DNA from: Escherichia coli
GTDB lineage: Bacteria; Pseudomonadota; Gammaproteobacteria; Enterobacterales; Enterobacteriaceae
Strand: one strand, 5' to 3'
Assembly (NCBI RefSeq): GCF_003334255.1
Contig: NZ_QOWU01000030.1
Length of the DNA stretch: 59,578 bases
Every line of letters begins with the position of its first letter. The first letter of the stretch is position 1. This document shows positions 9,356-42,138 of the stretch, in pieces. The notes under the pieces were generated by a model. The model searched no databases, was not told the origin of the DNA, and was given only the letters and a program-made list of their open reading frames with translations. Made by a program: the position numbers and the translations under genes.

Positions 9356-11332
9356 TTACTCATCTTCAAGATAAGTATAACCGTACAAACCTGCCTCGAA
9401 CTCTTCAAGGAACTGTTGTTGCAGTTCAGCATCAAGATCGGTTTTCTTCACTTGATCGCGGAACTGGGTTAACAGCGTTTTCGGATCGAGCTGTACATAT
9501 TGCAGCATGTCCGCCACGGTATCGCCTTCGTCAGACAGTTCTACTTCTACGCTACCGTCAGGGAAGACGAACACGTCAACCGCTTCGGTATCACCGAACA
9601 GGTTGTGCATGTTGCCGAGGATCTCCTGATATGCGCCGACCATAAAGAAACCGAGCATCGGCGGATTCTCTGGATCGTACTCCGGCATTGGCATTGTCGT
9701 GGCAATACCGTCACCATCAATATAGTGGTCGATAGCACCGTCAGAGTCACAGGTAATATCCAGCAGCACAGCGCGACGTTCCGGCACTTGATCCAGCCCT
9801 TCCAGCGGCAGAACCGGGAACAACTGGTCGATCCCCCATGCGTCCGGCATCGACTGGAACAGCGAGAAGTTGACGTACATTTTGTCCGCCATACGTTCCT
9901 GCAGCTCGTCGATAATCGGACGATGAGCACGGTTTTGCGGATCCAGCTGCTTTTGCACTTCATGGCACATGCTCAAATAAAGCTGCTCAGCCCATGCACG
10001 TTCTTGCAGGCTAAAGATGCCGGAAGAGTAGCCGATATGAATGTCGTGCAGATCCATCTGACTGTCGTGTAACCATTCACGCAGAGAACGGCGAGTTCCC
10101 GGTTCGTGCATCTCCTGCCAGGTTTCCCACATGCTTTGCAGCGCGCGCGGCGCATCTTCTGCAGGCGCGGTCGGCACCGTGTATTCGTTACGTTCCACGC
10201 CGATGATATTAGACACCAGCACGGTGTGATGCGCAGTCACCGCACGACCCGATTCGGTGATTACCGTCGGATGCGGCAGACCGTTTTCTTCACACGCATC
10301 GCCAATCGCCCAGATAATGTTGTTGGCGTATTCATTGAGGCCGTAGTTCACCGAACAGTCGGACTGCGAACGAGTACCTTCATAATCCACGCCCAGACCG
10401 CCGCCGACGTCGAAGCACTGAATATTGACGCCCAGCTTGTGCAGTTCCACATAGAAACGCGCGGATTCACGAACGCCTGTCGCGATATCGCGAATATTCG
10501 CCATCTGCGAACCGAGGTGGAAGTGCAGTAGTTGCAGGCTGTCGAGACGCCCGGCTTCACGCAGGGTTTCAACCAGTTGCAGTACCTGAGTCGCAGCCAG
10601 GCCGAACTTCGATTTTTCCCCGCCGGAGGACTGCCATTTACCCGAACCCTGCGAAGCCAGACGTGCACGCACGCCCAGACGAGGAACGACATTCAGACGT
10701 TCTGCTTCATCCAGCACAATGGCGATTTCTGACATCTTCTCAATGACCAGATAGACCTTGTGCCCCATCTTCTCGCCAATTAATGCCAGGCGGATATATT
10801 CGCGGTCTTTATAACCGTTGCAGACGATGACGCTACGGGTCATGCCAGCATGTGCCAGTACTGCCATCAACTCGGCTTTGGAACCGGCTTCCAGACCCAG
10901 CGGTTCGCCCGAATGAATCAGGGACTCAATCACGCGGCGGTGCTGGTTAACTTTGATCGGATAAACAAGGAAGTAATCGCCGTTATAGCCGTAGGATTCC
11001 CTCGCACGTTTGAACGCGGCGTTAATGGAACGCAAACGGTGCTGCAGGATCTGTGGGAAACAGAACAGTGCAGGCAGACGCTGGCCCTGTGCTTCACGAG
11101 TTTTCACTAACTGCGCGAGATCGACGCGAGCTTCCGGGACGTCCGGGTCCGGGCACACGCTAATGTGGCCCAGCTCGTTAACGTCATAGTAGTTATTGCC
11201 CCACCAGGCAATATTGTAAGTACGCAGCATCTTGCTGGCTTCCTGGGAGCTCATTGCAACCTCCTGCATGGAGCGTAGTACACCGTGTTCGCCCGCTGAC
11301 GAAGGCAAACCCATAGACATGTCGTCAGACAT
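9356..11332 (-). CDS. speA: Biosynthetic arginine decarboxylase, 658 aa
   Basis: Full-length PLP decarboxylase; track ORF over-extended by 4 codons, start [12 protein letters not shown] at 11332. Confidence 0.95.
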
Positions 11333-11340
11333 AGCGAACC

Positions 11341-11472
11341 TCAAATTATTTTATTAAGTGTAAAACAGTTAACGACTATCGCAGCCTGGAACTGCGATAA
11401 CAACCCATAAGCACATGGATTTTCCAGCAGTGAATGCTGACGCTCCAACTGCGCAACCGGTTTCTTTTTCAT
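11341..11472 (-). CDS. yqgB: Small protein YqgB, 43 aa
   Basis: Translated by hand: [43 protein letters not shown]; below the track's size cutoff; ends 9 nt before speA start. Confidence 0.75.
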
Positions 11473-11607
11473 AACATTATTAAGCACATAACCGAACGTA
11501 AGTGTGAAAGTTCGGCGAAACCACGAGAAAACTCTTGTTTTTACAAGAGCGCCCTTGTTCAGTCCTCAGTAACTGTAACCAGCTCTTGAATCCTGAGAAG
11601 CGCCGAG

Positions 11608-11823
11608 ATGGGTATAACATCGGCAGGTATGCAAAGCAGAGATGCAGAGTGCGGGGAACGAATCTTCACCAGAACGGTGAGACAGGTTAAGCAGCAGACA
11701 ACGGTTCATTATTTCGTATCACCTCCACGGCCGCCTGTTAAGACGAACCCACAAGCCAAAACTCTGATTTCAACCCGGCTGGAAGTGGCAACACGAAAGA
11801 AACGTCGTGTGCTTTTTATTTAA
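11608..11823 (+). CDS. yqgC: Small protein YqgC, 71 aa
   Basis: 71-aa ORF at the position K-12 annotates yqgC, between speA and metK. Confidence 0.55.
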
Positions 11824-12126
11824 GCCGCGCGCCGCGTTTTATACCCCACAATGGCAGAAAATTGCAAAAGATAAATACGCAGAATGCCGGCATTGTCAGG
11901 AAAAATTTCCAGCCACGTTTTTAACAGAATGAGACACGATTCAAAAAAAAGTGGAAATAGGGTGAAGAATTGACCTAAAATAGCCATCCAGATGTTAATC
12001 CATCCATACCGATTAACACTCAGACTGCCAGTGTTTTTAACCTGCAGAGTCGTGGTAGGATCCGCTACCACAGAAAATCCACACAACAGTTTGAGCTAAC
12101 CAAATTCTCTTTAGGTGATATTAAAT

Positions 12127-34576: not shown

Positions 34577-34973
34577 AAGCGCAAACCCGTTTCGGGGAAG
34601 TAAGAATACCGGACAAGGTGGAAAACCCTGCCCCATGAGATATGGGTCAAACTGGTCACCAGCTCCGACCGCCAGACATCAGTAAAAGCAGAAACGCTCT
34701 GATTTTACTGTTGTCCTGCAGTGAGCGTGCGTTAACTTCACCGCATGAGCAGTAACATAGAAAGGGAAACGTTTCGCGCGAAACGGCGATAAGCGAGAGA
34801 ATGTAAGGAGATGGCGTGCATCGGGCAAACTCCGTACAGAGAGGAGAAAATTCGCGCAATCATGGCACCTTTCGCTAAAGCGTGCAAGCCAGGACTTTGC
34901 GAACAAACAAGCCATCGACGGCACCAAACGGTCATAATAAGAAAATCAAACAATACAGCTAACAGGAACTCTT

Positions 34974-35786: not shown

Positions 35787-35862
35787 GCCCGGATAGCTCA
35801 GTCGGTAGAGCAGGGGATTGAAAATCCCCGTGTCCTTGGTTCGATTCCGAGTCCGGGCACCA
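35787..35862 (+). tRNA. pheV: tRNA-Phe (GAA anticodon)
   Basis: 76-nt sequence gcccggatagctcagtcggtagagcaggggattgaaaatccccgtgtccttggttcgattccgagtccgggcacca with CCA end. Confidence 0.97.
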
Positions 35863-35968
35863 CCTTACATCAAAGCCACTGGTCAGGAGTGAGAACCCTG
35901 ACGGGTGTCATCGGGAAGGTGTAAGATGTCGTGAATGTCTCTCATGCCATCTCATTTTCTCGATTTAA

Positions 35969-35997
35969 GGAGCATGTTGGACGCATGCTCCTTTTCT
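35969..35997 (+). terminator. Hairpin terminator downstream of pheV
   Basis: ggagcatg…catgctcc stem followed by ttttctc. Confidence 0.5.
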
Positions 35998-36061
35998 CGA
36001 TCATTTATTATGCTTGCAAAGCTTTTTCAGGTTGTCAACAACGGCAAAACAAAGTCATGAT

Positions 36062-37057
36062 CTAAAATACATCAGTAAGTTCTGCCAGTTCTTTTTCAAG
36101 CACTCTTGCCGTCCCCTTCAAATCGATTTCCACATACTCCAGAGTGGTGGAAACATTCCTGTGCCCGAGCATGGTTTTCACCATATAAAGATTACGTTCC
36201 GGTGCACTCATCAGCGTACTGGCCAGCGTATGCCGAAAGCGATGAGGTGATACAGGGAAACCGCACTCTTTCGTCAGACGTCTGAAAAATCCTTTTACCG
36301 GTTGCAGTTCCGGAAGTCCGGTAACGAACGGTGCTTCTGACATCAATGCCACATAACGATGATAATGGAAAAGATAATCCTCAGGTCTTGCCCCCCGTTT
36401 CATCGCCTCATCAATCAAGTGCCTCATTCCCGGGACAAGATGACTGACCATAGGGATACGCCACTCATGGTGTGTCTTACTTCCCTCCGAACACAGATCA
36501 ATCCATCTTTCATCCGGATTAACATCCCGCAGACGCAGGTGAAGTAACTGATTTAGCCTCATCCCGGTAAAACGCAGCGTATTTACCACAATCATCCAGT
36601 ACCATGCCGGACGAATCGCACAACTACGCCAGTGCACACCACCAGAACGCTTCTCCTCTTCATGAAACTGTTCAAGAATCAGCAGAATTCGTTTTACCTG
36701 TTTCTTCGTCAGTGTTTTCTTACGTTTCTTTTCCTGTCTGACATTCATACCATCAAACGGATTCTCACTTAAATTAAGAAGTGTTGAGGAACATGCAAAA
36801 TTGAAAATGGCACGCATATGGCGAACCTTGTTATTCCATGTGTGCGTGGAGCGATTCTGTTTTTTCAGAACCTCTCGTTTCCATTCCCTCACATGCTGTT
36901 GCCGGATATCCTCCGGTAAAAGGGTCTCGCCAACAAACTTCCGGAATCCATTCAGAACCTTTAGGTAACTCCACTCCGTAGCCACTCTCACTGAACGGCA
37001 GAAAAAATATTCATCCATAAGCTCGTTCCAGCGCATGTCAGCATGACTTAATTTCAT
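36062..37057 (-). CDS. Tyrosine site-specific recombinase / island integrase, up to 331 aa
   Basis: Catalytic-domain motifs HRFRHTLAS and LGHRNVSTTLEYVEID (R…HxxR…Y); about 200 bp from tRNA-Phe 3' end; exact start among M1/M8/M14 unresolved. Confidence 0.85.
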   Translation of the reverse strand: MKLSHADMRWNELMDEYFFCRSVRVATEWSYLKVLNGFRKFVGETLLPEDIRQQHVREWKREVLKKQNRSTHTWNNKVRHMRAIFNFACSSTLLNLSENPFDGMNVRQEKKRKKTLTKKQVKRILLILEQFHEEEKRSGGVHWRSCAIRPAWYWMIVVNTLRFTGMRLNQLLHLRLRDVNPDERWIDLCSEGSKTHHEWRIPMVSHLVPGMRHLIDEAMKRGARPEDYLFHYHRYVALMSEAPFVTGLPELQPVKGFFRRLTKECGFPVSPHRFRHTLASTLMSAPERNLYMVKTMLGHRNVSTTLEYVEIDLKGTARVLEKELAELTDVF

Positions 37058-37099
37058 AATTAAACCCTTTACAAATAGGTTACATTTTTACCAAAATAC

Positions 37100-38698
37100 T
37101 TACCTCCTGCGCTCACTGAAAAAAAAGTTCGGACTGTCATTGAGAGCCCCTGTATCCATCAGACCACGTCCTTTTATCAGATAACCTTTGAGTATTTTAT
37201 AATCGTGTGTTTTCCCTGGTGCCTCAGCAATTCGCGCATGATAAAAACGCTGATTATCTTTTCGCTTATGGATATTCAGTCGTTCAAATGCAGCCTGTAG
37301 CACCTCTCTCTTCTCCCCGGGGAGTTGCCGGGCTTTCAGGTAATCATAAAAAACCCCCGGCACAGGAATGAAGACAAAGCCGGCAACCACATGAATTTTA
37401 TCGCCTTTATTGTTAAACGACAGTGAACCATTCTTCAATCCGTCTTTCAGCCATTCAAGAAACCGCTCTCCTGTTAAATCAGGATTAACAGCATCAGATT
37501 CTGCTTCACAGTATTCCTGTTGCTCAGCGTCTTGATACGACTGACAGATTTCCCCATGGCCCGCTGCTGATATATCTCCTGTTGATGAAACAGGAGCAAC
37601 CACCTCGCCAGATGGCAAGTCATCCTCCCCCTTTTCCGGCGCCCTCGCCTCCTCCGCAAACATGCTTACCAGCATAGCTGTATCTTCATCTGTCGATATA
37701 CTCTCCGTTTCACATGCGGCATCGTCCTCTGAACCTTCACTGCTGTCTGGTGTCGTCGGTTTCTCAGCCTGTTGTTGCTGCATCTCTGATTGTTCCTGAA
37801 CAGACTCTGCAGCATTGCCGAACACGGTATTCCCTTCAGCCGCAGCCCCTTCCCCGGACACAGCCGATGCCACGGTGCTCTCCGTTTTACCGGATGCAAC
37901 CACCTCCCCCGTAACGACCTCTGCTGAAGCAATATGACTGGCTGTGGCAACAATTCCACCGTTTAACAACGGACTTTCAGCCTGACGGGCAGCCTCCTGC
38001 AGAACATCACGGATGAGTGCCATTTCCGGATGCTGATGCCAGAACGCACCGGCCAGATTCTGAAGCGCTCCCGGCACCGTCGCAAGCCAGGCTGCAGCCC
38101 CCTCAGGTAACAGACCACCGGCAATCACTGCCGCCAGTTGCTGAGCTTCCGTACCCTGTGGCGGGATCAGTCTGAACCGGAAACGATACGCCTCATCAGG
38201 AACGGATATACCCGGCTGCCATCCCCGGCAGCTGAACAATTCGCCTTCCAGATGCGCAAGCAGAGGCAGGTGATAAAACAGGGCTGACCAGAAAATCACT
38301 GCATGCCAGGCCGCCCCCTGTGCGGCCTGCTCTTCCGCAGAGGCGCCCGGCAGAAACATATGTGCACGGGCCAGACGGACCGCGTAACTGGTATGCAACA
38401 ACGTCAGGTCCCCGAATCCCCCTGCATGTGACCAGCGCCCCTCCCGGGCCGCCGGGACATTCTGCGTGGAGAGAAGCAGACTGTATATGGGCGCACAACA
38501 CATCGCCTCACACAATGACTTTGACATCATATTGTTATCCCGTATCTGCTTCAGACACTGCGTCCTGTTCTTCGGCATCAGCAGTGAATCTGTCGTCAGC
38601 GGAGCATAAAACCCTTCCGGCGTCCCCGGCAGTGACCGCCCGTCATCGGGTATCTCCACAGCAGAACCAGAGGTAAAAAACTTCCGTAACTTAAACAT
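37100..38698 (-). CDS. Uncharacterised acidic Ala/Glu/Ser-rich protein, 533 aa
   Basis: Start MFKLRKFFTSGS with GGAGGG SD, 4 nt after helicase stop; track ORF runs on into the helicase gene; no canonical Walker A. Confidence 0.6.
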   Translation of the reverse strand: MFKLRKFFTSGSAVEIPDDGRSLPGTPEGFYAPLTTDSLLMPKNRTQCLKQIRDNNMMSKSLCEAMCCAPIYSLLLSTQNVPAAREGRWSHAGGFGDLTLLHTSYAVRLARAHMFLPGASAEEQAAQGAAWHAVIFWSALFYHLPLLAHLEGELFSCRGWQPGISVPDEAYRFRFRLIPPQGTEAQQLAAVIAGGLLPEGAAAWLATVPGALQNLAGAFWHQHPEMALIRDVLQEAARQAESPLLNGGIVATASHIASAEVVTGEVVASGKTESTVASAVSGEGAAAEGNTVFGNAAESVQEQSEMQQQQAEKPTTPDSSEGSEDDAACETESISTDEDTAMLVSMFAEEARAPEKGEDDLPSGEVVAPVSSTGDISAAGHGEICQSYQDAEQQEYCEAESDAVNPDLTGERFLEWLKDGLKNGSLSFNNKGDKIHVVAGFVFIPVPGVFYDYLKARQLPGEKREVLQAAFERLNIHKRKDNQRFYHARIAEAPGKTHDYKILKGYLIKGRGLMDTGALNDSPNFFFSERRR

Positions 38699-40199
38699 CC
38701 TTTCCCTCCACCACCTTCTCTGTGCCACTCTCATGCGGGGACGGCGTCTTCTCCGTCGTCCTGCTCTTTTCCTCAGCCAGTTGCTGCATGAGCTCATTGA
38801 GTACCAGCGTCCTGCGTGCCCGGGTAACCGCCACATACAACAGGTTAGTTTCATCCCGGCGCGCCTGTTCTGACATCAGCGGATCAGCGATATCCTGAAA
38901 ATCATCCCCCAGTACAACCCGCACCCATTCCAGTCCCTTACTGCGGTGCGCCGTTGAAACCGTGATATCAGCCTCCCGCTCGTTCGTGACTGTGTGCTCC
39001 CTGAGTAGCTCCAGTTTTTTTGGTAACGGAAAACACAGCTCCAGCAGTCGTATGGACTGATTCATCTCCACATCCTTCGTCACCTTCGCAATATGACGGT
39101 ATTCATCAAAATTCCGGTAATCCCTGCGCAACCGGTCAGAGTGCATCCGGGCCGGCATATCCATCTGGAACCAGTAAAGATCTTCAAGCGCCTCCGTTCG
39201 GTATCCCTCAATGCCCCCGACCCAGTAAACCTTCCTGCCCGCCATTGCTGCCATCAGCGCCGTGCCAATCACTCCGGCGACGGTCCGGTTCAGTACCGCC
39301 CGGTGTCCCCCAAATTTTCCACGCTTCATGCGCTCACGCATTTCCTGCATGGTAAGCACCTCATCATCACCGCCGCAGCCGCTCACCTCTCGACTTTCCC
39401 CTGCGCGTTTCAGCAGCAGATTAGCCATCGCGGCCACTGCGGGGCCAAAACGAAAACTCTGTGTCAGCCAAAGACGGTCGGCACCGGACAGAGACGGATG
39501 AGACAGGGCATCATCCGCGCCACGAAAACGGTAGATCTGCTGATACCGGTCACCGACCAGCACAATCCTGCACCGCTGTCCCAGCACAAGTGCGGAAGTC
39601 ACCGGATTCGCATCCTGCGCTTCATCAAACAGAATGGTGTCCCATCTGCGCGAGAGATCAGGTCCGGAGAGCTGAAACAATTTGAGATAGGTGTCATGGG
39701 TGACCGGAAACGTTCCATCCGGATCGCTCATTGCCTGCCAGAGCGTCCTCACAGCACGAAGTGCCTCATCCGGAGCAACTCCTTTCATTTCGTCCTTGTC
39801 CGGCAGATGCTGCCTGCCGGGGGTTGCATCCGCTGAGCAGATAAACTGATTCAGCCCTGTCATGGCCACCCGGGCCAGTGCCCAGTATCGGGTATTCAGT
39901 TTTCTTGCCACATCGGTGACGAACAAGCCCGGAACAAGCCGCTTCTGGTAATGCCTTCCGAAGCGGGCAAACGCCAGCTGATGCGACGTTTTGCATTCAA
40001 CGTTAAAAGGAAACCTGCGCTCAGCTTCATCACGAATCGCACGATTATAGGCGAGATAGAGCATCCTGCTCTCCGGGCAGGCCATGGCATAGCTGACCAG
40101 TGTGCTGGTTTTCCCTGTACCGGCAAAAGCATTAACAACAAGCTTCCTCCCCTGCCAGTGAATAATTGCCGTCTGTTCTTCTGTCGGTTTATGGGGCAT
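38691..40199 (-). CDS. Compact UvrD/Rep-like superfamily-1 DNA helicase, 502 aa
   Basis: Walker A AFAGTGKTS, motif II ILFDEAQD, motif III VGDRYQQIY, motif V TAHRSKGLEW, motif VI YVAVTRARR; GGAGG SD. Confidence 0.8.
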   Translation of the reverse strand: MPHKPTEEQTAIIHWQGRKLVVNAFAGTGKTSTLVSYAMACPESRMLYLAYNRAIRDEAERRFPFNVECKTSHQLAFARFGRHYQKRLVPGLFVTDVARKLNTRYWALARVAMTGLNQFICSADATPGRQHLPDKDEMKGVAPDEALRAVRTLWQAMSDPDGTFPVTHDTYLKLFQLSGPDLSRRWDTILFDEAQDANPVTSALVLGQRCRIVLVGDRYQQIYRFRGADDALSHPSLSGADRLWLTQSFRFGPAVAAMANLLLKRAGESREVSGCGGDDEVLTMQEMRERMKRGKFGGHRAVLNRTVAGVIGTALMAAMAGRKVYWVGGIEGYRTEALEDLYWFQMDMPARMHSDRLRRDYRNFDEYRHIAKVTKDVEMNQSIRLLELCFPLPKKLELLREHTVTNEREADITVSTAHRSKGLEWVRVVLGDDFQDIADPLMSEQARRDETNLLYVAVTRARRTLVLNELMQQLAEEKSRTTEKTPSPHESGTEKVVEGKDV

Positions 40200-40663
40200 G
40201 GCTTTCCTCCGTAAAGACGAAATTTCCGGTCACTCTGCCTTCAGCCAGGCGACCGTGACCAGCATTAATTTACCCTGGTGACCATAAAATTTTACCTCCC
40301 GTAAATTTTTAGCGACCTGAAAAGAATTAATTATCGCCACCCGGGTATCAGCTGTTCATTATCCCCTCAGACACAGCCCACAACGGGTCTGCTGTATCAC
40401 CGTTCTTCGTAACGGTCATGCTCTTTAACAATCCGGGAGCGGCCACGCCCTGAAGCCGGGCTGAGGAGGAAAACAGATATGCTACGTAGAGAGTGACGTG
40501 CCGCGCCTGCAGCCACAGGTAACACTCCCCAACATCGGACACCGCAAATAATGGCTACACAACCCGAAAACGCACTGAGCGCCAGAACAGTGCGTTTCCG
40601 GTTGTGCCGGAGCCTGCACCCTGCAGAGTCCTGAACAACATCCAGTAAAACCAGGCACTTTCG

Positions 40664-40699
40664 GCGACATCATTTTCCCCATGGTGATGTCGCTTTTTT
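40664..40699 (+). terminator. Strong intrinsic terminator in non-coding region
   Basis: 9-bp stem gcgacatca/tgatgtcgc, 12-nt loop, then tttttt; no ORF of 60 aa or more upstream on this strand. Confidence 0.65.
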
Positions 40700-40736
40700 C
40701 AGCACAGAATAATAATGCACAGCAGGAGTACAGATA

Positions 40737-40967
40737 ATGGCATCAGCACTGGCCACCCCAGCCCCGTATAAATACTGTATTCAGGCCACCATCGAAAAAC
40801 CCGGCGGTACACCGGTTTCATGGATTCGCTTCCAGAATACGCCCATGACGAAACAGGAGTGTGAAAAACTCTTCTCCACTGAAAAAGAAGCCGGTAAATC
40901 TTTCACCGTTAAAGTCGGGGTTACTCAATTTTCATGTAAGGAAAATCCACCTGCACCTGGAGAGTGA
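40737..40967 (+). CDS. Hypothetical small protein, 76 aa
   Basis: AGGAG SD 8 nt upstream of ATG; no recognisable family. Confidence 0.4.
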   Translation: MASALATPAPYKYCIQATIEKPGGTPVSWIRFQNTPMTKQECEKLFSTEKEAGKSFTVKVGVTQFSCKENPPAPGE

Positions 40968-40975
40968 TTTTTATT

Positions 40976-41170
40976 ATGCCTCATCCCATCACATATACAA
41001 ATTTTCTTCCGGTGGTTCTGTTTTTCGTTATCGTTATTTTTATTATCACTTTTATAATAGCCATCACCACGACCATCCCCGCAGATATGACTGTAAGAGG
41101 CTTTTACAATAGATACAGAAAGGATTTTCTGTCTCTTTTTTCGGCATATTTCCTTTCATCAATATTCTGA
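40976..41170 (+). CDS. Hypothetical small hydrophobic protein, about 64 aa
   Basis: Very hydrophobic N-terminal half; ATG at 40976 downstream of GGAGAG. Confidence 0.3.
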   Translation: MPHPITYTNFLPVVLFFVIVIFIITFIIAITTTIPADMTVRGFYNRYRKDFLSLFSAYFLSSIF

Positions 41171-41466
41171 GCATTCTTGGTGACAGGCACCAGTATTTCA
41201 GACAGCACGCCGGTTTTCGGTAGTACACCGGACAATGCGATTACAAACTCGCTGATTTCACTGGCGTTCTGTAATTCGTTATTAACTCACGCATGGATTT
41301 GTGATCTCTGCGACATACACAGAAACAAAAACATCTTTATTTATATAACACTGGCTTTTCTTCATCTTATTTTAATCAATTCATGCACCCATTTTATCTA
41401 CGCCACTTTTTATTAATTCAGTTAACTCCGTCTTAACAGACAGAAATAGTGAAAAAGGTGATACTG

Positions 41467-42138
41467 ATGAATATATTAAGATACTTAAGTATTTCGCTCT
41501 TCGCGTTCTCATTTTCATATACCGCCACAGCCTCCACTCAGATATCATCATCGCACAACCACGCCGAAAAACGTGCAATCGGTACGCTGAAATTTATACG
41601 GGCCGACGGACAACGACCGTTTGGTCAGGCTATGAAACAATTATTACCCACCGGCTGGCGTACTGAGATTGCCCGTGACGTCCGGCTCCCCGCCAGAATA
41701 TCATGGTCCGGAAATGACCAGTGGAACCATGTTATCGAAAAAACGCTGCCCCGCTACAGCCTGAAAGCCACATTTGATACCTCAGGGAAACGCGTACTGA
41801 TCCAGCAGGCGGAAAAAACGGTAAAATCTGGCCTGTTTTCTGCCCCCGTAACCGGTGTCAAAAAAACAGAAACACGTCATATTGAGCAGGGAATGACCCT
41901 GCGTACAGGGCTGGAAAAATGGGCAGCCGCCGAACCTTGCGCTACCGGGAAATGGAAAGTGGCATGGAAAACGCCGGTAAATTACAGTATCGATGCCCGG
42001 TTAGTTTTTTCAGGTAATTTTATGGATGCACTGAACAGTACATTCGCACTTTATCAGCAGGCTGAAAAACCCTTATATGCCTCGGTGAATAAAAACCAGT
42101 GCGTGCTGATAATTACTGACATCCCGGGGGACAGCTAA
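41467..42138 (+). CDS. Pilus-assembly accessory protein (PilL/TcpQ-like, tentative)
   Basis: Signal peptide; first gene of a block co-linear with the R64 thin-pilus operon; ATG 41467 with AGGTG SD (track starts at GTG 41449). Confidence 0.45.
   Translation: MNILRYLSISLFAFSFSYTATASTQISSSHNHAEKRAIGTLKFIRADGQRPFGQAMKQLLPTGWRTEIARDVRLPARISWSGNDQWNHVIEKTLPRYSLKATFDTSGKRVLIQQAEKTVKSGLFSAPVTGVKKTETRHIEQGMTLRTGLEKWAAAEPCATGKWKVAWKTPVNYSIDARLVFSGNFMDALNSTFALYQQAEKPLYASVNKNQCVLIITDIPGDS

Follow-up and report, generated by a model that had tools for sequence, protein, structure and literature searches.

Translated leaders of polyamine genes

Translational coupling by termination and reinitiation is classically known from tightly spaced operon genes and from genes of RNA phages. 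The subject of this analysis, the yqgB–speA gene pair of Escherichia coli, resembles these systems in that the upstream stop codon lies within a few nucleotides (nt) of the next start, and in that the downstream Shine–Dalgarno (SD) sequence and AUG fall in a predicted hairpin that a ribosome would open. It differs from them in that the upstream cistron consists of just 43 codons, apparently without a selected protein product. Moreover, speA has a second, independent start (Met27), so that coupling would affect its long isoform only. The pair is located in a 59,578-nt stretch of contig NZ_QOWU01000030.1 (assembly GCF_003334255.1), hereafter the window. All coordinates are window positions, and yqgB, speA and the leader features are all on the minus strand.

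The closest described parallels are two upstream open reading frames (uORFs) of polyamine genes. Like yqgB, mdtU is a translated small open reading frame (ORF) in the long leader of a polyamine operon (mdtJI); in both cases a Rho-dependent 3' end falls where the downstream gene begins, and conservation of the uORF overlaps RNA predicted to pair with the downstream ribosome-binding site (RBS) (PMC7815308). However, 106 nt separate the mdtU stop codon from mdtJ; that of yqgB is 8 nt from the speA AUG or overlaps it. The C-terminal peptide of MdtU is reported to be conserved, whereas YqgB shows no selection at the amino acid level. Finally, spermidine dependence and a start-codon mutant phenotype have been demonstrated for mdtU (PMC7815308), whereas the role of yqgB proposed here is deduced from sequence comparison. 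In speFL–speF–potE (Salmonella orf34, PMC6386406) a uORF likewise precedes a polyamine decarboxylase gene, the regulation of which involves Rho and alternative RNA structure, as is proposed here for yqgB–speA. Unlike SpeFL, which functions through its peptide sequence and a ligand-induced (ornithine) stall at the stop codon, YqgB has a near-neutral peptide with insertions between the conserved block and the stop.

Nothing about the existence, translation or location of yqgB is new, nor is the proposal that it acts as a uORF: Adams et al. (2021; PMC7815308) counted yqgB among experimentally validated small ORFs and listed yqgB–speA among nine uncharacterised uORF candidates. The original prediction, in which a small yqgB abuts speA within a list of ORFs that systematically over-extends N-termini, is therefore ordinary: RefSeq already gives the position, the uORF proposal had appeared in print, and the over-extension follows from the rule by which ORFs are called. 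What is new here is a comparison of 80 species, which lends modest support to viewing yqgB as a translated leader rather than a protein gene. With moderate confidence, we regard yqgB as a genuine translated ORF in a structured yqgG–yqgB–speAB leader of ~500 nt, acting in cis by translational coupling and by protection from Rho. The present analysis shows the anatomy of the locus and its conservation, a neutral-like evolution of the peptide, an avoidance of in-frame stops and the predicted hairpins, whereas translation of yqgB, the two starts of speA and the Rho-dependent 3' end are taken from the literature; the coupling, the anti-Rho role and any sensed signal are what we infer.

The junction between yqgB and speA

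Positions 10800–12300 of the window are 100% identical to E. coli K-12 and to many other E. coli genomes, and the RefSeq coordinates of yqgB and speA in the identical K-12 stretch are exactly those read here. The main features, all on the minus strand, are as follows.

11341..11472, minus strand: yqgB, 43-codon ORF with ATG at 11472 and TGA at 11343..11341; RefSeq coding sequence (CDS), match to NF033844, start detected by INRI-seq
11333..11343, minus strand: junction TGA-GGTTCGCT, stop codon overlapping the SD sequence, with 8 nt of spacer up to the speA ATG
9356..11332, minus strand: long isoform of speA, SpeA-74 (658 residues); RefSeq CDS, primary Ribo-RET start peak, conserved upstream ATG
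11252..11265, minus strand: internal speA start, short isoform SpeA-70, with SD sequence AGGAGG (11265..11260) and Met27 ATG (11254..11252)
11275, minus strand: Term-seq 3' end (NC_000913.3 position 3085854, mapped by sequence), Rho score 3.1, flagged 'uORF' in passages of the PMC7815308 supplement
11830, minus strand: 5' end of the speA 5' untranslated region (UTR) as cloned by Adams et al., mapped from the primer sequence

The sequence, the ORF list and RefSeq all agree on a yqgB of 43 residues abutting speA. The distance of 9 nt originally given holds when counted from the last base of the stop codon to the first base of the ATG (11332..11330); as a spacer it does not, since the intervening GGTTCGCT (11340..11333) is 8 nt long. 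The SD sequence of speA, GAGG (11342..11339), overlaps the yqgB stop codon, and TGAGGTTCGC at the junction is invariant in all 56 of the 56 aligned sequences. Tight spacing is common in the part of the window collinear with K-12, where 7 of 29 same-strand neighbour pairs overlap or are at most 8 nt apart. The 8-nt gap alone is unremarkable; it is the conservation of this gap that exceeds chance. Further downstream, the perfect AGGAGG of the internal speA start, 5 nt before the Met27 ATG, is invariant in the alignment.

Direct reading of the sequence upstream of the yqgB ATG revealed no SD sequence. A leaderless yqgB, as the TACAAT box just 5' of the ATG might suggest, was rejected, because the spacing would place the transcription start within the ORF. 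The yqgB start codon is also overlain by a two-codon mini-ORF (11467–11475, minus strand), which reads ATG-TTA-TGA in E. coli and ATG-ATA-TGA in most other genera.

From the cloned 5' end at 11830 the speA leader measures ~498 nt. A promoter-like TTGCAA-N18-TATAAA (11867..11838) lies just upstream, and 11830 is presumably the transcription start site, although a literature search for a mapped speA promoter found none. A yqgG–yqgB–speAB transcript was deduced from a northern blot (figure legend in PMC7815308). The same study reported Rho-dependent effects, using a speA 5' UTR fusion and a northern blot, and a striking accumulation of short leader transcripts in a rho mutant. The Term-seq 3' end falls inside speA (57 nt in), 12 nt beyond the 3' side of the predicted hairpin HP3 described below.

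Conservation of the open frame and its end-point

A word-indexed protein search with YqgB returned 17 matches, in Escherichia and Shigella only; Pfam PF11036 is precomputed for all 17. We therefore replaced it with a comparison of the speA 5' regions from 80 Enterobacteriaceae and Erwiniaceae species, one genome per species. As these species are phylogenetically related, the counts below are not independent.

The start of the long speA isoform is conserved at the sequence level: in 81/81 sequences examined an in-frame ATG precedes the internal Met, by 26 codons or, in one locus, by 25. A uORF of the MKKKP type is present in all 67 Enterobacteriaceae loci with enough upstream sequence, and its stop codon is TGA in every one of them. 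Only two types of junction occur among these loci: the 8-nt spacer, TGA-GGTTCGCT-ATG (38 loci), and an 8-nt overlap, ATGTCTGA (29 loci), in which the peptide ends with ...EVRYV. In all 13 Erwiniaceae the frame that ends at the overlap is open for at least 37 codons; these species include Pantoea, where the peptide is unrelated. YqgB-type peptides range in length from 38 to 91 residues.

The yqgB ATG is invariant in the alignment, and the frame that follows is kept open. Over 63 distinct sequences there are no in-frame stops in the uORF frame, compared to 240 and 169 in the other two frames; all 63 are stop-free in the uORF frame, but 0 and 3, respectively, in the others. The same holds within the variable blocks, where 29 stops are expected from composition and 0 are found in the uORF frame against 8 and 58 in the other frames. 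Hairpin-forming insertions of ~25, ~45 and ~135 nt at one site of the uORF likewise bring no stop into its frame; shuffled versions of each insertion would remain open with a probability of 0.12–0.41. These insertions occur in eight loci (L013, L015, L023, L030, L048, L033, L035 and L053) at a site homologous to ~11360; they are closed by UAUACC/GGUAUA and resemble a variable 'expansion' stem of the leader RNA.

Selection on the peptide and on the nucleotides

If YqgB were a conventional protein, its codons should reveal this. We compared entropy at the three codon positions and nonsynonymous (dN) and synonymous (dS) substitution for yqgB and for two parts of speA.

yqgB: entropy 0.67/0.73/0.69; dN 0.22, dS 0.29, dN/dS 0.77
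speA N-terminal extension (26 codons): entropy 0.25/0.31/0.57; dN 0.079, dS 0.184, dN/dS 0.43
speA body (codons 27–226): entropy 0.09/0.03/0.93; dN 0.013, dS 0.85, dN/dS 0.015

Relative to speA, amino acid change in yqgB is ~17 times faster and synonymous change ~3 times slower. The low dS of yqgB (0.29, compared to 0.85 for speA) indicates that its synonymous sites are constrained. Purifying selection on the amino acid sequence was thus not detected, dN/dS being high and third positions showing no excess of variation, and between the Salmonella (L011) and Klebsiella (L029) loci dN even exceeds dS. The conserved 'residues' of YqgB are nucleotide blocks that are invariant at all three codon positions, e.g. 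GGGTTGTTATCGC and CTGCGATAGTAGTYAACTGTTTTACAC, and these blocks form hairpin stems in the predicted fold. From these comparisons the YqgB peptide appears to evolve near-neutrally and without codon periodicity. An internal promoter in yqgB (TTAACT-N16-AATAAT, 11372..11345) was considered as the main cause of the nucleotide conservation and rejected, because the would-be -10 element falls in the most variable columns of the alignment.

A motif, UGUUUUACA, occurs twice in most genera (loci L005–L069), once 5' of the yqgB AUG (11473–11487) and once in codons 36–38 (~11357–11372). In the second copy the synonymous sites are invariant, and it is partly retained even in Pantoea. The pair might represent a shared binding site for a protein or a small RNA (sRNA).

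These data bear directly on the best of the alternatives, namely that YqgB is a trans-acting small protein, involved in acid stress response, and that speA is a mere operon neighbour packed at an ordinary distance. The RefSeq product name is 'acid stress response protein YqgB', and the sequence matches all 40 positions (1–40) of the NCBIfam profile NF033844 (small_YqgB) with 90.1 bits against a cut-off of 35. The 'acid stress' name reportedly goes back to Hemm et al. in 2010. Although yqgB is a full-length member of NF033844/PF11036, neither 'acid stress response' nor 'virulence promoting factor' is supported by the substitution pattern. Besides its validation as a small ORF and the commonness of tight spacing noted above, the view of YqgB as a protein draws on over-expression, which induces heat-shock proteins and so implies that the peptide accumulates, and on a 2026 Salmonella study (PMC13159126). 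The latter described acid- and colistin-related phenotypes of a yqgB deletion as well as binding of ranitidine to YqgB by surface plasmon resonance (SPR). However, the deletion also lowers speA and speB mRNA and enzyme levels, and its phenotypes, which track this drop, are rescued by putrescine, spermidine or arginine. The words 'complement', 'polar', 'in-frame' and 'operon' are all absent from the main text of the study, which mentions no control for complementation or polarity. Together with the lack of a protein-coding substitution pattern, the coincidence of conserved residues with hairpin stems, the widely varying length and the unrelated Pantoea sequence in the same position, this makes a trans-acting protein unlikely.

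Less probable still is a metabolite-sensing arrest peptide of the SpeFL/MdtU/TnaC type. On this view a polyamine or its precursor would halt ribosomes on the stop codon of yqgB, thereby setting both speA translation and the access of Rho. The analogy with mdtU and speFL, the Rho-dependent 3' end just downstream and the presence of a second uORF, yqgH, before speC all speak for this possibility, as does the stop codon on the speA RBS, which a stalled ribosome would occlude. There is also a conserved segment, ...AIVVNCFTL, near the C-terminus, but its conservation is at the nucleotide level and includes synonymous sites. An arrest peptide under amino acid selection would be expected at a fixed distance from the stall site, and this is not what the alignment displays: the last 4–9 residues before the uORF stop are variable and use two frames, and in several lineages insertions of 8–45 codons separate the conserved block from the stop. 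In an over-expression screen for arrest peptides, performed with no ligand added, YqgB grouped with inducers of aggregation and heat shock and not with the arrest-like 'cold-shock' group. Moreover, speA is biosynthetic, so that its regulation would have to run opposite to that of mdtU and speFL.

Predicted structure of the leader RNA

Each distinct sequence was folded alone, and z-scores were derived from mononucleotide shuffles, which limits how far the values below can be read. The predicted elements, all on the minus strand, are listed in 5' to 3' order of the outer helix and hairpins.

11459..11522, minus strand: outer helix GGUUUC (11522..11517)/GAAACC (11464..11459), enclosing HP0 and the yqgB AUG
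11492..11515, minus strand: HP0, CCGAAC...GUUCGG, just 5' of the yqgB AUG; median z -2.25
11426..11438, minus strand: HP1, small AGCA/UGCU hairpin inside yqgB; median z -3.56
11367..11405, minus strand: HP2, helix inside yqgB, GGUUGUUAUCGCAG...CUGCGAUAG-UCGU-UAACU; median z -1.73
11287..11339, minus strand: HP3, predicted hairpin of about -20 kcal/mol; median z -2.3 in 40 distinct sequences

Two control segments gave z of about 0. Nearly every species is predicted to form HP0–HP3. In HP3 the 5' arm takes in the last base of the SD sequence and the spacer, then UG from the speA AUG together with codons 2–4, and UCGUCAG..GCGAAC makes up the 3' arm. At z < -1.5 this hairpin is predicted in 97% of distinct sequences, with 97.5% of its alignment cells paired. 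Over all helices 93.6% of cells are paired, compared to 25–49% after sliding the partners. HP0, with 5/7 pairs, accounts for essentially all of the two-sided covariation. The HP2 stem is invariant at all codon positions, its apical pairs differing between lineages; both arms of the outer helix are nearly invariant and 98.9% paired, without covariation. RNAalifold reported no compensatory pairs. Taken together, the folding results support HP0 well and make HP2 and HP3 plausible.

A classical amino-acid attenuator of the trpL/pheL/hisL type can be excluded: YqgB contains no conserved codon run, and nothing resembling a terminator separates yqgB from speA. The leader has a single terminator-like hairpin, GCTCTTGTAAAAACAAGAGT followed by TTTTCTCGTGG (11531–11550, minus strand), which is upstream of yqgB, 16 nt after the yqgG stop codon. 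Its U-rich tail is conserved across genera, and the passages of the PMC7815308 supplement list no Term-seq 3' end there. Overall, yqgB looks like neither a classical attenuator nor a conserved arrest peptide.

An Rfam scan of the whole window gave two matches (a tRNA and naRNA4), none of them in 11200–11900. That a structured leader RNA alone (riboswitch-like, bound by a protein or sRNA, or releasing a trans-acting 5' fragment), which would then be an undescribed element, is responsible, the yqgB frame being incidental, would fit the nucleotide conservation, the predicted hairpins, the 'expansion' insertions at one site, the paired UGUUUUACA motif and the short transcripts of the rho mutant, but it is the most improbable of the three alternatives, given an invariant ATG with detected initiation and a frame kept free of stops through variable blocks and insertions. 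This alternative is compatible with the cis-acting translated leader that we favour, as RNA structure and translation both appear to be under selection.

Proposed role of yqgB in cis

In the mechanism that we favour, the SD sequence and AUG of the long speA isoform would be held in HP3. A ribosome moving along yqgB would open up the 5' arm of HP3. It would then terminate on the speA RBS, where the stop codon precedes the AUG by 8 nt or, in other genera, follows it by 5 nt (ATGTCTGA), and could reinitiate at the speA AUG, so that the long isoform would be made by translational coupling, while the short isoform would initiate independently at Met27 from its own AGGAGG. Continuous ribosome cover over the junction would also limit the premature, Rho-dependent termination that gives rise to the 3' end mapped at +57 nt; the position of this end, 12 nt beyond HP3, is as expected if exonucleases trim the terminated transcript back to a stable hairpin. 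The selected trait would be translation up to the junction together with RNA structure, and not the amino acid sequence of YqgB.

Several lines of evidence agree with this mechanism. An ORF and an end-point that are conserved while the peptide is not are the pattern expected of a cis-acting leader ORF. The lower speA and speB levels in the Salmonella deletion and the rescue by polyamines or arginine are what a cis effect would give. The stop codon is within a few nucleotides of the speA start, or overlaps it, on what the published northern blot indicates to be one transcript, and a translated leader ORF (INRI-seq) is followed by a Rho-dependent 3' end (PMC7815308). The coupling or leader-peptide-like relationship originally suggested for the pair is thus strengthened, with qualifications, by the published uORF listing, the Rho-dependent 3' end and the conservation of the ORF and its end-point without that of the peptide.

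Other observations weigh against the proposed mechanism. Both junction TGAs are also constrained by the SD sequence and by SpeA codons 2–3, so the conserved end-point is partly a by-product, leaving the absence of any earlier stop as the informative signal in the sequences. In Ribo-RET experiments a peak is seen at the speA ATG even though yqgB elongation is abolished, hence this ATG must be at least partly accessible without coupling; initiation at yqgB itself is too weak to be detected by Ribo-RET in vivo. The rut-like (Rho utilization) C-rich stretch is in yqgG and not in yqgB, throughout which C/G is below 1, and no rut-like RNA was seen next to yqgB either. As to structure, HP2 and HP3 contain no compensatory double changes, only one-sided wobble-compatible ones; HP3 lies within coding sequence, and its conservation could have other causes; and the 141-nt junction region folded as a whole is no better than its shuffles (z -0.64), so that it is the single hairpins alone that are distinctive. 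Finally, the searchable literature yielded no experimental test of the yqgB–speA uORF idea.

A broader version of this proposal, which we put forward tentatively and hold to be somewhat less probable than the cis role as such, is that yqgB is a non-protein leader ORF in an undescribed, conserved, structured speA leader RNA. Ribosomes would have to read it up to the junction in order to unmask the start of the long isoform and keep Rho away, perhaps depending on polyamine, arginine or pH status; the YqgB annotation and the claim of a drug target would reflect polar effects on speAB, and several enterobacterial polyamine genes would be governed by translated uORFs. If the YqgB sequence is indeed unselected and the deletion acts via speAB, RefSeq and NCBIfam would carry a misleading functional name, and a polar effect would underlie the 2026 case for YqgB as a target of colistin adjuvants. 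Two long-standing findings, namely that SpeA exists as two isoforms and that arginine decarboxylase is under post-initiation control, would also gain a concrete mechanism. With yqgG and yqgH, speA and speC would then join the published speF and mdtJI as polyamine genes governed by leader ORFs.

Starts of speA and over-extended ORFs

The presence of at least two genuine starts in speA is a nuance that was absent from the original prediction. Ribo-RET displays two speA peaks, at the annotated ATG 11332 (primary) and at the internal Met 11254; INRI-seq detects both of these as well as the yqgB start. N-terminomics detected both SpeA proteoforms, and the same pair of starts is used in Salmonella. 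None of these data supports the longer ORF of the list, which begins at TTG 11344.

We compared RefSeq starts with the first ATG, GTG or TTG after the upstream in-frame stop for 38 CDS between fumE and yqgA. Most of the RefSeq starts used as the reference are themselves predictions, so that, except for speA, this is a comparison of annotation with a rule. The claim that the list over-extends N-termini was borne out for all 13 genes for which it had been made, the longest ORF starting upstream of the RefSeq start by 4–73 codons. Overall, 19 of the 38 CDS are extended, by the following numbers of codons.

Genes named originally: tkt +10, loiP +73, speA +4, metK +4, galP +4, rsmE +9, yqgE +24
Genes named originally, continued: ruvX +42, yggR +25, yggL +10, mutY +10, nupG +16, speC +20
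Six further genes: yqgB +5 (GTG 11487), yqgD +5, endA +1, yggU +4, mltC +1, yqgH +44

The cause is that the longest-ORF rule starts each ORF at the first ATG, GTG or TTG after a stop. N-terminal over-extension is a definitional artefact of the list and not a feature of the genome.

Neighbouring leader ORFs and other features of the window

Another ORF of the speA leader precedes yqgB.

11566..11709, minus strand: yqgG, upstream 47-codon ORF in the speA leader with its own GGAGG SD sequence

yqgG has been validated as translated, whereas the antisense yqgC has not. Its ATG is conserved in 62/66 Enterobacteriaceae sequences; the peptide is 38–55 residues long, with a conserved C-terminal segment of 17 residues. 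The only C-rich, G-poor stretch of the leader (C/G 1.6–1.9), a candidate Rho loading site, coincides with yqgG, and judging by this composition yqgG may matter more than yqgB for control by Rho. A second Term-seq 3' end (3086295), given in passages of the PMC7815308 supplement, maps to 11716 (minus strand), 7 nt upstream of the yqgG ATG, and would imply a stable 5' fragment of the speA leader of ~115 nt.

The validated 27-residue ORF yqgH (34738–34821, minus strand) is located 161 nt upstream of speC (ornithine decarboxylase, ATG 34576). With the uORFs of the speA leader, both polyamine decarboxylase genes of the window thus have translated upstream ORFs. A sigma-54 site mentioned alongside yqgB was discarded, as it sits 5 kb away, in endA. 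The Rfam naRNA4 match, a nucleoid-associated RNA of the repetitive extragenic palindromic (REP) type, scores just above the gathering threshold and lies in the hemW–yggM intergenic region (23885–23955, minus strand).

Collinearity of the window with K-12 ends at tRNA-Phe (35787–35859). The region beyond it (35864–59578; 35900–41900 was checked) codes for a tyrosine integrase, a conjugal nickase/helicase, a UvrD-like helicase and a TcpQ-like protein. At least 80% of this region is covered in only 5 of 5,426 complete E. coli genomes, with 100% identity in the Shiga toxin-producing E. coli (STEC) strain 2015C-3121. It is probably a rare integrative, and possibly conjugative, element at pheV.

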